Origin: Escherichia coli
GTDB lineage: Bacteria > Pseudomonadota > Gammaproteobacteria > Enterobacterales > Enterobacteriaceae
Strand: one strand, 5' to 3'
Assembly: GCF_003790525.1 (NCBI RefSeq)
Contig: NZ_CP033635.1
Length of the DNA: 64,000 nt
This document shows, one piece after another, positions 446 through 10,316 of this stretch. The translations under genes and the position numbers were made by a program. Every line of letters begins with the position of its first letter. Position 1 is the stretch's first letter. The notes beneath the pieces are model-generated. The model saw nothing but the letters and a program-made list of their open reading frames with translations. It had not been told where the DNA came from and ran no database searches.

Positions 446-1936
446 ATGAAATTGCACCATAGAATGCTCCGGCATTTTATCGCCGCAAGTGTCATTGTGC
501 TGACATCTTCCTTCCTTATTTTTGAACTTGTCGCCAGTGACAGAGCAATGAGTGCCTATCTGCGCTATATCGTGCAGAGAGCAGACTCCTCCTTTCTTTA
601 TGATAAGTATCAGAATCAGAGTATTGCCGCGCATGTGATGCGCGCTCTCGCTGCTGAGCAGTCGGAAGTGTCGCCAGAACAGCGGCGAGCCATCTGCGAG
701 GCTTTTGAGTCTGCCAATAATACCCATGGCTTAAACCTGACTGCCCATAAATACCCTGGCTTACGCGGCACACTACAAACCGCATCCACTGACTGCGACA
801 CAATTGTGGAAGCTGCTGCACTATTACCCGCTTTTGATCAGGCAGTGGAAGGCAACCGCCACCAGGATGATTACGGTTCAGGTCTTGGGATGGCCGAAGA
901 GAAATTTCACTATTATCTCGATCTCAATGACCGCTATGTCTATTTTTATGAGCCGGTTAATGTTGAGTACTTTGCGATGAATAACTGGTCCTTCCTGCAG
1001 TCAGGAAGTATTGGCATCGATCGCAAAGATATTGAAAAGGTATTTACCGGGCGTACCGTATTATCGAGCATTTACCAGGATCAGCGTACTAAACAGAACG
1101 TGATGAGTTTGCTGACGCCGGTATATGTCGCAGGGCAGCTAAAAGGGATTGTGCTGCTGGATATTAACAAAAACAATCTGCGGAATATCTTTTACACTCA
1201 TGACCGCCCTCTCCTCTGGCGTTTTCTCAATGTCACGCTAACTGATACCGATTCGGGGCGCGACATTATCATCAACCAGAGCGAAGATAATCTGTTCCAG
1301 TATGTCAGTTACGTCCATGACTTACCGGGCGGCATTCGTGTCTCGTTATCCATTGATATTCTTTACTTTATCACGTCTTCGTGGAAAAGCGTTCTGTTCT
1401 GGATTTTGACGGCGTTAATTTTGCTGAATATGGTGCGGATGCACTTCCGTTTATACCAAAATGTGTCGCGAGAAAATATTAGTGATGCGATGACTGGACT
1501 CTATAATCGCAAAATTTTAACCCCTGAACTGGAGCAGCGGTTGCAGAAACTGGTGCAATCCGGTTCTTCGGTGATGTTTATTGCAATTGACATGGACAAG
1601 TTAAAGCAAATAAATGACACCCTTGGTCATCAGGAGGGGGATTTAGCGATTACGTTATTAGCTCAGGCGATTAAACAATCGATTCGTAAAAGTGATTATG
1701 CCATCCGACTCGGTGGCGATGAATTCTGCATCATTCTTGTCGATTCGACACCGCAAATTGCAGCACAACTGCCTGAACGTATCGAAAAACGTCTGCAACA
1801 TATCGCGCCGCAGAAAGAGATCGGCTTCTCTTCCGGTATTTACGCGATGAAAGAAAACGATACGTTACATGATGCGTATAAAGCTTCCGATGAGCGTTTA
1901 TATGTCAATAAGCAGAACAAAAACAGCCGTTCATGA
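446..1936 (+). CDS. dgcJ: diguanylate cyclase DgcJ (YeaJ), 496 aa
   Basis: ORF 266..1936; ATG at 446 preceded by GGAG (431..434) gives the 496-aa product; intact GGDEF motif (RLGGDEFCIIL); N-terminal TM plus periplasmic sensor domain. Confidence 0.93.
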   Translation: MKLHHRMLRHFIAASVIVLTSSFLIFELVASDRAMSAYLRYIVQRADSSFLYDKYQNQSIAAHVMRALAAEQSEVSPEQRRAICEAFESANNTHGLNLTAHKYPGLRGTLQTASTDCDTIVEAAALLPAFDQAVEGNRHQDDYGSGLGMAEEKFHYYLDLNDRYVYFYEPVNVEYFAMNNWSFLQSGSIGIDRKDIEKVFTGRTVLSSIYQDQRTKQNVMSLLTPVYVAGQLKGIVLLDINKNNLRNIFYTHDRPLLWRFLNVTLTDTDSGRDIIINQSEDNLFQYVSYVHDLPGGIRVSLSIDILYFITSSWKSVLFWILTALILLNMVRMHFRLYQNVSRENISDAMTGLYNRKILTPELEQRLQKLVQSGSSVMFIAIDMDKLKQINDTLGHQEGDLAITLLAQAIKQSIRKSDYAIRLGGDEFCIILVDSTPQIAAQLPERIEKRLQHIAPQKEIGFSSGIYAMKENDTLHDAYKASDERLYVNKQNKNSRS

Positions 1937-1978
1937 TAACCTTCTGTAGTTGTTTGCTTGTAATCTCAGGAGCATGAA

Positions 1979-2482
1979 ATGACTGAAATGGCTAAAGGAA
2001 GCGTGACGCATCAGCGGTTAATCGCTTTATTATCGCAAGAAGGTGCTAACTTCCGCGTCGTTACCCATGAAGCGGTAGGTAAATGTGAAGCGGTGTCAGA
2101 AATTCGTGGCACCGCTTTAGGCCAGGGGGCTAAGGCACTGGTATGTAAAGTCAAAGGCAATGGCGTAAATCAACATGTTCTGGCGATCCTCGCTGCCGAT
2201 CAACAGGCCGATCTGAGCCAACTCGCCAGCCATATAGGCGGATTACGCGCTTCGTTGGCCAGCCCAGCGGAAGTCGATGAACTCACAGGCTGTGTCTTCG
2301 GCGCGATCCCCCCTTTCAGCTTCCATCCAAAACTCAAACTGGTTGCCGACCCCCTACTCTTCGAACGATTTGATGAAATCGCCTTCAATGCAGGCATGCT
2401 GGATAAATCCGTTATTTTGAAAACCGCGGATTATTTGCGTATTGCGCAACCAGAACTGGTCAATTTCCGCCGCACTGCGTAA
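1979..2482 (+). CDS. yeaK: YbaK/ProX-family aminoacyl-tRNA deacylase YeaK, 167 aa
   Basis: Full-length ORF; recognised YeaK sequence; RBS AGGAG upstream. Confidence 0.93.
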   Translation: MTEMAKGSVTHQRLIALLSQEGANFRVVTHEAVGKCEAVSEIRGTALGQGAKALVCKVKGNGVNQHVLAILAADQQADLSQLASHIGGLRASLASPAEVDELTGCVFGAIPPFSFHPKLKLVADPLLFERFDEIAFNAGMLDKSVILKTADYLRIAQPELVNFRRTA

Positions 2483-2587
2483 CTAGCCTGTCCGTTCAAT
2501 AAGCAGAACGGACAAAACCAGCACAGCAGCAATGGCAAAAAACGATGACGTGATAATCAGTGTCTCGACGAACATTTGATCGTTCAT
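2483..2587 (-). CDS. yoaI: small membrane protein YoaI, 34 aa
   Basis: Minus-strand translation [34 protein letters not shown]; below the ORF-track size cutoff; stop codon directly abuts the yeaK stop. Confidence 0.8.
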
Positions 2588-2756
2588 AGTATGCCCCCGG
2601 GAGATAGCTGTTTTCACGTTATTGTTAACGTACACAAATGGCAGTTTGATGACAGTTCGTCTGATTTTTTATGCAAAAAACGTAAAGATTTTCTACTTCC
2701 TGCCTGCAGCAAGCGTAAAGTAAGCAGGCTTATTATTTTTTGGCAAGGAAACCACG

Positions 2757-3203
2757 ATGTTTGATGTCACTTTGCTGATCCTGCTCGGGTTAGCTGCGCT
2801 GGGCTTTATCAGTCATAACACCACTGTCGCCGTTTCAATTCTGGTGTTGATCATTGTCCGCGTCACACCGTTAAGCACCTTTTTCCCGTGGATTGAAAAA
2901 CAGGGGCTAAGTATCGGGATAATCATTCTGACGATTGGCGTTATGGCTCCCATCGCCAGCGGGACGCTACCGCCCTCAACCCTGATTCACTCATTTCTGA
3001 ACTGGAAATCGCTGGTGGCAATTGCAGTCGGCGTTATTGTCTCCTGGCTGGGGGGGCGCGGCGTGACGTTAATGGGCAGCCAGCCGCAACTGGTCGCCGG
3101 GCTGCTGGTGGGCACTGTTTTAGGCGTGGCGCTGTTTCGCGGCGTACCGGTTGGCCCGCTTATTGCCGCGGGTCTGGTTTCGCTGATTGTGGGGAAACAG
3201 TAG
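2757..3203 (+). CDS. yeaL: UPF0756 inner membrane protein YeaL, 148 aa
   Basis: Full-length ORF; highly hydrophobic multi-TM protein; conserved position. Confidence 0.92.
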
Positions 3204-3981
3204 TTAATCCCGCAATATATCGGCCTGGCGTTTGCCCCAGGCCTTTCTTAAACATAGTAATAAAGGCCGTTGTTGAATCATACCCCAGCGTATGAGCAAC
3301 TTTCTGTACAGTATCGCCTTTCACTAATCCCTGAAGCGCCATAATCAGCTGTAACTGCTGACGCCACTGGCGAAAACTCAACCCCGTCTCTTTCACTATC
3401 AGCCGGGCAAGATTGCGTTCACTCATCGCAAAAAAGCCAGCCCATTGCCCCAATGAGCCCCACTCGACGGGCTCTTTCGCCATCATCTCCACCATCGTGC
3501 GGATTTTAGGATGAGAAGAAACGGGCAGGTGCAGCTGTTGTTGTGGCTGCTGAGGGAGTTCATCAAACAGGACCTGAATTAATCTGCGGGTCATCGGCTC
3601 AGCACGCTGAGTCGTCGTCCTGTTTGCCAGGGTTAAAATTAATTCCCGGCATAAGGGCGATATTTTCAATGTGCAACATGTTGTCGGCATTGTCACTGCG
3701 CTGGGCTCGATAAACAGAAAACAGAGTTCAGCGTTAGCTGTCACTTGATTGCTATGTTTCACCCCGCCCGGTATCCAAACCGCATATTGTGGCGGCACCA
3801 TCCACAAAGCATTTTCCACCGTACAGGTAATTGCACCATGTAGCGCCAGTATCAACTGCCCTTTGCGGTGCTGATGTACAGGACTGGTTAACTCATCCGT
3901 TCCGGCGTGAATACAAAATGCGACCGCGGCCTCATGGTGTCGGTCGGGTTCATAGCCATTGAGATTCAACCTGTGCATCAT
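3160..3981 (-). CDS. nimR: AraC-family transcriptional regulator NimR (YeaM), 273 aa
   Basis: Full-length ORF; C-terminal AraC-type HTH; divergent from nimT; 3' end overlaps yeaL convergently by 44 nt. Confidence 0.93.
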
Positions 3982-7353: not shown

Positions 7354-7411
7354 CGTCACATCTAGAAAATAGCAAAGGCTGCCTGTGTGCAGCCTTTGTG
7401 CAATTTACGCG

Positions 7412-7660
7412 TTAACTTTTAATCTTTCTGTAGATAAACAGCACGACAATCGCGCCAATAACGGCAACCACGAAGCTGCCAAAATTGAAGCCATCGACTT
7501 TACCAAAGCCAAACAGCGTGCTGATCCATCCGCCGACTACGGCACCGACTATCCCCAGCAGGATAGTCATAAAGAATCCACCACCATCTTTACCTGGCAT
7601 GATCCACTTCGCCAGAATACCGGCAATAAGCCCAAAAATAATCCATGACAGAATGCCCAT
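7412..7660 (-). CDS. yeaQ: GlsB/YeaQ/YmgE-family stress-induced membrane protein YeaQ, 82 aa
   Basis: Full-length ORF; glycine-rich transmembrane protein. Confidence 0.92.
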   Translation of the reverse strand: MGILSWIIFGLIAGILAKWIMPGKDGGGFFMTILLGIVGAVVGGWISTLFGFGKVDGFNFGSFVVAVIGAIVVLFIYRKIKS

Positions 7661-7807
7661 TGTTTCCTCACTTATCTGTTTTGCATTAGCGGGTTAGTCG
7701 CTGATAAAAAGCATAGCACAACATCGGGAGGGCAAGATTTGTGACGAGCATCACGGAGGATTTTTTTGCGATGGCGCAGAAATTGCGCCATCAACGATCA
7801 GTGATAA

Positions 7808-7990
7808 TTACCAACCACAAACATCATGTTCGTTTTCCGTGTCATAAGAACGCACGGTATTCACCAGATCTTTTATCACTTCAGCCGCCACTTCTGGCAC
7901 CAGCAAAGTCATCGGCGTCTCTGTTTCATAATCGACAGAAACGCCATTGCTGTTATTGGTGACGGTCACGGTATACGTTGCTTTGCCCAT
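7808..7990 (-). CDS. yoaG: DUF1869 protein YoaG, 60 aa
   Basis: Full-length ORF; lies 3 nt downstream of yeaR (yeaR-yoaG operon). Confidence 0.9.
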   Translation of the reverse strand: MGKATYTVTVTNNSNGVSVDYETETPMTLLVPEVAAEVIKDLVNTVRSYDTENEHDVCGW

Positions 7991-7993
7991 GAT

Positions 7994-8353
7994 TCATTTC
8001 CCGTTATGAATGACTTTCCGTTGTTGCGCACCTTCCATCAGGACTTCAGGGGCAACGAAGAAGTCAATGTTGAAATAAGTATCGTCAGTCATGGCTTCAA
8101 TGTTGTGCCACTTTTCTGGAGGGAACACCGCAAACTGCCCCGCTTCGATAAGGATCACTTGATCAGGCTCTGTACTGTGTTCATCAGCGTAGCCGAGATA
8201 TTTGACCGCCCCATGCATAACGGAAAGGCGTGGGTAAACCCCCGGGCGCGTTCCTTTATCAAGATGACGTTCGAATATTCCGGCAGGCGCAGTTTGTTTA
8301 TTCCAGAAAGGCGTTGAGCGCGTATGAATATAATTCTGTGGGATTTGCAGCAT
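7994..8353 (-). CDS. yeaR: DUF1971 protein YeaR, 119 aa
   Basis: Full-length ORF; conserved position. Confidence 0.92.
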   Translation of the reverse strand: MLQIPQNYIHTRSTPFWNKQTAPAGIFERHLDKGTRPGVYPRLSVMHGAVKYLGYADEHSTEPDQVILIEAGQFAVFPPEKWHNIEAMTDDTYFNIDFFVAPEVLMEGAQQRKVIHNGK

Positions 8354-8419
8354 CCTTTTCCCTCCTTCGGTGAATGCGCTGAAAACGGTTTATTTCAGCC
8401 GTTTCAGGGTACGCCTGAT

Positions 8420-8442
8420 AATTTGCATTTTAAATACCATTT
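8420..8442 (-). promoter_or_regulatory. putative NsrR operator in the yeaR-yoaG promoter
   Basis: AATTTGCATTTTAAATACCATTT, about 70-90 bp upstream of yeaR, resembles the NsrR inverted-repeat consensus (AAGATGCATTT-A-AAATACATCTT); yeaR-yoaG is a known NsrR/NarL target. Confidence 0.45.
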
Positions 8443-8525
8443 ATTGGTTACTATTTAGCACCGTATCAGAGAAAAATCAGGGAGGATTACAGATGGGAAG
8501 CCCGCGACAACGCGGGCTGAAAGCA

Positions 8526-9233
<708 letters not shown>

Positions 9234-9290
9234 TTAGAAAGGAGAAAATCAGGTTTTAACCCGATATCAACGCGATAATTGAATCATTAA

Positions 9291-10214
9291 TCAGGCATGC
9301 TCCAGTGAAAAATTCGGGTAGTGCTCGGCAAAATACTGGCGTAAAAATTCTACCGTTATCCGCACTTTCGCTGACGTCGCCAGCCTTGAAACATAAACGG
9401 CCCAGACGTTCGCTGGCTGGTAATATTCCGGTAGCACTTGCACTAAATGACCACTGGCAATGTTTTCGCTAACATCCCACCAGGAGCGCAGAGCAATCCC
9501 CTGCCCATCGAGACACCACTGATGGACAATTTCTCCATGATTAGACGACAGTGGGCCGGTAACTTTAATCGCATGGTGGCCTTCTTTATTGCGTAATTGC
9601 CAGACACCAAAAGGATGATCGCGCTCTTTAATGACCAGGCACGGCAATGCAGAAAGATCGGTTAAATGTTTCGGCGCGCCATGTTGCGCAATAAATTCCG
9701 GTGACGCGCAGAGAATGCGATAATTGGTCGCCAGTTTGCGGGCGATTAAATTAGGGGCGATATCATCGCCAATGCGAATATCGAGATCGACACCTTCATT
9801 GACCAAATCGACCAACCGGTCTTCCACATCAAAACGTAATTCCAGTTGCGGATACGCCTTCGCCAGCGCTGATAACGCCGGAGCCACCACCTGTCGTCCA
9901 AAACCAAAGCTGCTGATAATACGCAGCATCCCCTGTGGCACCTGACGCACGTCAGAAAGTTCGTCCATCATCTGACCGACATCCTGCAAAATCCGCTGCG
10001 CCCATTCATAAATCCGCTCTCCTTCTTCGGTAATGGTGACGCGGCGGGTGGTGCGGTGTAACAACACCACGTTTAGCGTTTGCTCCAGCAAGGCGATGCG
10101 CTTGCTGACGAACGCCGGAGAAACGCCCAATTCTTCTGCCACGGCGGCAAAACCAGCCCGGCGAGCCACCAGCATAAAGACGCGCAAATCGTTCAGCAGC
10201 GGTAAATTATTCAT
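9291..10214 (-). CDS. dmlR: LysR-family transcriptional regulator DmlR (YeaT), 307 aa
   Basis: ORF 9291..10235; ATG at 10214 (MNNLPLLNDLRVF...) gives 307 aa; N-terminal LysR HTH; divergent from dmlA. Confidence 0.92.
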   Translation of the reverse strand: MNNLPLLNDLRVFMLVARRAGFAAVAEELGVSPAFVSKRIALLEQTLNVVLLHRTTRRVTITEEGERIYEWAQRILQDVGQMMDELSDVRQVPQGMLRIISSFGFGRQVVAPALSALAKAYPQLELRFDVEDRLVDLVNEGVDLDIRIGDDIAPNLIARKLATNYRILCASPEFIAQHGAPKHLTDLSALPCLVIKERDHPFGVWQLRNKEGHHAIKVTGPLSSNHGEIVHQWCLDGQGIALRSWWDVSENIASGHLVQVLPEYYQPANVWAVYVSRLATSAKVRITVEFLRQYFAEHYPNFSLEHA

Positions 10215-10316
10215 GATTCGTGTTTTATGTTTCACCAGTTACAGGGATTAATTCCTTTTCAGTCAATTATAGGATGGTGATGTTGTCAATTTTGATGGTC
10301 AGGAAGTGAGAACCCA

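Follow-up and report, generated by a model that had tools for sequence, protein, structure and literature searches.

The intergenic region between leuE and yeaR of Escherichia coli raises the question of which regulator, if any, recognizes an AT-rich, imperfect palindrome upstream of yeaR, and how this palindrome is placed with respect to the promoter from which yeaR and yoaG are expressed. The stretch of DNA analysed, referred to here as the window, comprises 64,000 nucleotides of contig NZ_CP033635.1, and the palindrome occupies its positions 8420..8442. This palindrome is the already published NsrR operator of the yeaR-yoaG promoter. We hold with high confidence the fuller reading in which the operator belongs to a sigma-70 promoter, lies on the -35 element, overlaps the NarL site and acts through derepression. 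The genes of the locus are arranged as follows.

9291..10235, minus strand: dmlR
8526..9164, minus strand: leuE, with its stop at 8526
7994..8353, minus strand: yeaR (DUF1971), ATG at 8353, first gene of the regulated operon
7808..7990, minus strand: yoaG (DUF1869), second gene of the regulated operon
7412..7660, minus strand: yeaQ

The operator is contained in the leuE-yeaR intergenic region (8354..8525, 172 bp), which was found in 5417 of the 5426 complete E. coli genomes. Positions 7400-9300 were matched in 5421/5426 of these genomes and are 100% identical to E. coli SMS-3-5 and several others. E. coli K-12 shows the same gene order, dmlR-leuE-yeaR-yoaG-yeaQ, and differs from the window by seven single-base changes in a 211-bp alignment. 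Numbered from the putative transcription start, five of these fall upstream of -52 and a sixth at about +5, within the 5' UTR; the seventh lies in codon 2 of yeaR. The regulatory elements are untouched by these differences: the NarL site, the -35 and -10 elements, +1 and the 23-mer of the operator are all identical between K-12 and the window. The repressor gene itself, nsrR, lies outside the 64-kb window and is present in 5425/5426 complete E. coli genomes at an identity of at least 95%.

The operator has the following structure.

8420..8442, minus strand: NsrR operator, an 11-1-11 inverted repeat AAATGGTATTT-A-AAATGCAAATT centred on 8431 (= -32)

Read on the plus strand, the element is AATTTGCATTTTAAATACCATTT; counted from the sequence, its two 11-bp arms agree at 8 of 11 positions, making it an imperfect palindrome. 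Read on the minus strand, that of yeaR, it is AAATGGTATTTAAAATGCAAATT, which is letter-identical to the 11-1-11 NsrR site given for yeaR in Table 4 of Mehta et al. 2015 (PMC5320621). The same study places the yeaR site 11th of 27 in its genome-wide NsrR table for strain CFT073, with an ln P of -17.05 (PMC5320621). To score the element, a symmetrised NsrR weight matrix was derived from 16 distinct ChIP-seq-positive 11-1-11 sites of this Table 4, the yeaR site being left out of the training set. With this matrix the operator obtained 20.97 bits, the highest value among 63,978 window positions, followed by a runner-up at 11.21 bits. No sequence among 200 first-order Markov controls of 64 kb attained this score, their mean maximum being 13.3, and the operator ranks in the upper half of the training sites, whose own scores range from 13.1 to 31.2 bits. 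Its promoter-distal half-site has just 7/11 consensus matches and is also under NarL constraint. The remaining NsrR-like matches in the window, at 11.2 bits or less, were dismissed because they score below the weakest training site (13.1).

The earlier note, which had quoted this palindrome as an NsrR-type operator and proposed a position-weight-matrix scan as a check, is borne out by that scan: the palindrome is present where it had been placed, its score lies far beyond chance, and the exact match to the published site, the position, the matrix score and the cross-species conservation concur in the same reading. A reading made without tools had placed a real operator with single-base accuracy.

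The IscR motifs of types 1 and 2 are not known to resemble the yeaR operator. That a different regulator, either another Rrf2-family protein or one such as IscR, is the one that binds here is extremely improbable; Rrf2 proteins do bind AT-rich palindromes of comparable length, but the match is specific to the NsrR matrix and the site is catalogued as an NsrR site (PMC5320621).

The place of the NsrR operator within the promoter can be derived from the published position of the NarL site, from which the following elements were assigned.

8435..8450, minus strand: NarL 7-2-7 activator site TAACCAATAAATGGTA, centred at -43.5, with sequence and position taken from PMC10853779 and found in the window
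8429..8434, minus strand: putative -35 hexamer TTTAAA, placed by NarL at -43.5, matching TTGACA at 4 of 6 positions and lying inside the operator
8406..8411, minus strand: putative -10 hexamer TACCCT (-12..-7), placed by the -43.5 numbering and the discriminator at -6..-1 (PMC10853779)
8399, minus strand: putative transcription start +1, a G, placed by arithmetic from the NarL centre at -43.5

In a cryo-EM structure of the NarL activation complex, TAACCAATAAATGGTA centred at -43.5 was resolved with a bound NarL dimer, and the transcript starts with G (PMC10853779). By our own count the site matches 10 of the 14 NarL consensus positions, its heptamers being related to TACYYMT, inverted and 2 bp apart. 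Since the 7-2-7 site at 8450..8435 is centred at -43.5, +1 should fall at about 8399 and the centre of the operator at -32, so that the operator would cover the -35 hexamer and overlap the core promoter. The G at +1 is invariant across 12 representative orthologues, and the spacer between the -35 and -10 hexamers measures 17 bp. The NsrR operator is reportedly centred at -32, in agreement with the arithmetic from the NarL position. The operator centre at 8431 also lies 78 bp 5' of the yeaR ATG; the proposal that the palindrome stands at a suitable distance upstream of the yeaR start fits as regards its placement, with the correction that the relevant reference point is the transcription start near 8399, not the ATG. 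The NarL site and the NsrR operator share 8 bp (8442..8435), which are promoter-proximal for NarL and promoter-distal for NsrR. A sigma-70 consensus scan of 8300..8600 called no promoter; as the yeaR promoter is a weak one that depends on an activator, this result was not counted against it.

Additionally, a 14-nt inverted repeat (8371..8384/8393..8406, 79% complementary) extends across the -10/+1 region and the early yeaR 5' UTR, and the orthologue alignment places it in Escherichia, not in Citrobacter or Salmonella. An mRNA hairpin formed by this repeat was considered and kept out of the mechanism, because the putative start at 8399 lies inside one of its arms and the repeat is not conserved beyond Escherichia.

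Conservation of the operator was assessed in orthologous loci collected by a YeaR scan with one genome per species, which provided 26 usable loci from Escherichia (five lineages, including E. albertii and E. whittamii), many Citrobacter, Salmonella (Salmonella enterica subsp. arizonae and diarizonae) and Silvania. In all of them (26/26), the top match to the NsrR matrix within the 3.3-kb locus occurs at the equivalent position, centred 73-84 bp 5' of the yeaR ATG and scoring 11.4-24.2 bits. The Silvania operator, AAGTCGCATTTTAAATGCATTTT, reaches 23.2 bits although the corresponding YeaR is just 68% identical, and that of C. amalonaticus, AAATGGTATTTAAAATGCCAGTT, reaches 24.2 bits; orthologues with an altered operator sequence retain or raise the NsrR score. 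Among 12 representative lineages, mean pairwise identity is 0.80 in the NsrR 23-mer and 0.80-0.84 in both the NarL site and the -10 hexamer, against 0.31 in the upstream spacer and 0.48 in the 5' UTR. The invariant positions of the orthologous operators are the ATTT/AAAT core and the terminal TT, together with promoter positions -35 to -33, while the uninformative base at the centre of the 11-1-11 motif is among the most variable positions and other low-information positions vary as well. Conservation follows matrix information, with a rho of 0.64 for the 15 positions that the operator does not share with the NarL site and of 0.53 when all 23 are included (p ~0.01).

Some of this conservation would be expected without NsrR, as the left 8 bp of the palindrome belong to NarL and its middle is the -35 hexamer. 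The palindrome could accordingly be viewed as no more than an AT-rich -35 region joined to the downstream NarL half-site, in which case it would resemble the NsrR motif by coincidence and the induction by NO would be indirect. NsrR ChIP-seq in CFT073 showed no peak at yeaR, a probable false negative according to its authors (PMC5320621), and this absence agrees with such a coincidence. The explanation is nevertheless very unlikely to be correct: the 21 bits were obtained with a matrix that excludes the site and are approached by neither random nor window sequence, and the orthologous sequences that have changed hold or increase their score. The positions attributable to NsrR only, -27, -26, -22 and -21, which belong to neither the -35 hexamer nor the NarL site, are conserved, whereas positions to which the matrix is indifferent vary. 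Direct control by NsrR is moreover credited to mutational analysis in the citing literature, as its passages on yeaR present it (PMC5320621; Conover et al. 2016). The reading as an NsrR operator is based on direct observations: which published site the 23-mer corresponds to, how strongly it scores, where it lies with respect to the NarL site and how well it is conserved.

Previous studies had already assigned this operon to NsrR and NarL. In the relevant passage of Mehta et al. 2015 (PMC5320621), yeaR is described as "known to be regulated by NsrR" with reference to Lin et al. 2007, and Conover et al. 2016 likewise cites Lin et al. 2007 for the control of yeaR-yoaG by NsrR and NarL; as later papers cite them, Lin et al. 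2007 and Filenko et al. 2007 are jointly credited with this control. The tests that had been suggested for the locus, an nsrR mutant and a mutation of the site, were reportedly published in 2007 with results supporting control by NsrR, to judge from these citations. The induction by nitrate or NO that had been ascribed to the operon is likewise documented, nitrate-derived NO raising yeaR 160-fold and yoaG 168-fold in CFT073, among the most induced genes (PMC5320621). The wording of the same paper, in the part concerned with yeaR, suggests that an earlier ChIP-chip study in K-12 was apparently without yeaR. Engineered probiotics also use the yeaR promoter to sense nitrate (PMC11753152). The operator, its regulator and the overlapping activation by NarL have been in the literature since 2007 and are already known. 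As an instance of ordinary textbook regulation, the operator carries little weight as a discovery.

A Fis site is said to overlap the NarL site at -43.5. The AT-rich region and this reported Fis site could add to the conservation observed. According to its title, Squire et al. 2009 describes Fis-dependent repression that competes with NarL at the yeaR promoter. The conserved AT-rich block might on these grounds be chiefly a Fis site, where Fis would displace NarL and so repress yeaR during growth in rich medium, leaving NsrR a secondary role. We give this view very little credence, as Fis complements the reading as an NsrR operator and does not exclude NsrR, and as highly degenerate Fis motifs cannot account for the 11-1-11 pattern, the variable centre base and the score of 21 bits. 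Furthermore, the Fis site is reported on the NarL site, not in the region around -32.

For the NsrR operator, the literature provides the repression by NsrR, the activation by NarL and the repression by Fis, which can be assembled into an account of derepression. NsrR, an NO-sensing iron-sulfur repressor of the Rrf2 family, would occupy the operator as a dimer when NO is absent. The bound holo-NsrR dimer would block sigma region 4 of RNA polymerase at the weak -35 hexamer and would probably also block the promoter-proximal protomer or half-site of NarL. This steric competition between NsrR and NarL is what we infer from the 8-bp overlap. NO would damage the cluster of NsrR, causing NsrR to depart, and phospho-NarL at -43.5, activated by nitrate or nitrite through NarX/NarQ, could then recruit polymerase via the alpha C-terminal domain. 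Fis would contribute a growth-phase repression, in keeping with the title of Squire et al. 2009. Since the NarL site and the NsrR operator share 8 bp, the yeaR promoter would integrate nitrate/nitrite and NO.

The shared segment takes a different form in three loci of the Citrobacter sedlakii / amalonaticus group (L007, L015 and L024), where, at about 1395..1431, TGCCCCTTTTGGTGTA replaces the NarL site TAACCAATAAATGGTA.

Citrobacter sedlakii-type promoter sequence: TGCCCCTTTTGGTGTATTTAAAATGCCAGTT

The replacement resembles a 7-2-7 site and matches 11 of 14 NarL consensus positions by our own count. In the same loci the left arm of the NsrR operator is TTGGTGTATTT and the NsrR score is still 21.1-21.6 bits; further upstream, the sequence does not align to the leuE end. 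Because Citrobacter keeps both motifs and the ChIP-seq peak in CFT073 is missing, the NarL and NsrR sites might be regarded as one composite element, whose 8 shared bp evolve under two regulators and at which NsrR acts mainly as a low-occupancy competitor of NarL, not as a classical polymerase-blocking repressor. This variant of the mechanism seems to us unlikely.

Compared with the NsrR operators of ytfE, hcp and hmp, that of yeaR has the same 11-1-11 architecture with an ATTT-N-AAAT core, the same location over the core promoter and the same NO signal. Its strength is middling, at 21 bits against 31 bits for ytfE, with a promoter-distal half at 7/11, and it is unusual beside the three in having 8 bp in common with a NarL activator site. 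The other Fnr-independent promoter activated by NarL, that of ogt, resembles yeaR in its dependence on NarL alone, in a 7-2-7 site abutting the -35 element and in repression by Fis, and differs from yeaR in requiring two tandem 7-2-7 sites, according to the portions of PMC10853779 that deal with these promoters. Those portions of the literature on the ogt and yeaR NarL promoters mention no NsrR operator at ogt (PMC10853779).

The description of the operon products as still lacking a biochemical function also holds. Pfam assigns only DUF1971 to YeaR and only DUF1869 to YoaG, and the YeaR structure PDB 3BB6 was deposited as "Uncharacterized protein yeaR", its closest solved relatives being TehB-type tellurite-resistance proteins. 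In UPEC, deletion of yeaR lowers type 1 piliation, and Conover et al. 2016 agrees that the function "has yet to be elucidated". A literature search on DUF1971 returned nothing about function. The operator leaves the biochemical role of YeaR (DUF1971) and YoaG (DUF1869) unaddressed.

Several further features were observed in the surroundings of the operon. Just past the leuE stop (8526), the minus strand carries at 8499..8518 a GC-rich hairpin whose perfect 8-bp stem, AGCCCGCG/CGCGGGCT, encloses a loop of 4 nt; in the orthologues this stem is kept by compensatory changes, as GGCCCGT/ACGGGCC in locus L011 and as GACCCG/CGGGTC in the Salmonella locus L016. The hairpin is probably the leuE terminator, which would shield the yeaR promoter from read-through; its T-run is weak, and a terminator scan made no call at it.

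Insertion elements occur at several points of the locus. In E. coli AMSCJX03 (L030, NZ_CP058355.1), an IS1A at 1786..2499 has entered the intergenic region at the equivalent of window position ~8454/8455, 4 bp before the NarL 7-2-7 site; the NsrR operator, the NarL site and the core promoter are all preserved and are now detached from the leuE hairpin and the spacer upstream. An IS421 insertion is found within the same 1.9 kb (7400-9300) in other E. coli genomes. Of 5,421 E. coli genomes, about 1,150 show a break in their match to the locus at the yoaG 3' end (window ~7844). In the one example inspected (L031), an IS200/IS605-type element lies at 2301..3940 between yoaG and yeaQ, carrying, besides a degraded tnpA, a gene for a TnpB/InsQ RNA-guided endonuclease; the C-terminus of the annotated YoaG is changed there and slightly extended.

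Between yoaG and yeaQ, the window contains an ORF of 40 amino acids (7672..7794, minus strand). By size and location it may be UTI89_C1993, a protein of 40 amino acids described as a hypothetical member of the operon (Conover et al. 2016). A GC-rich inverted repeat is located inside this ORF at about 7772..7794.
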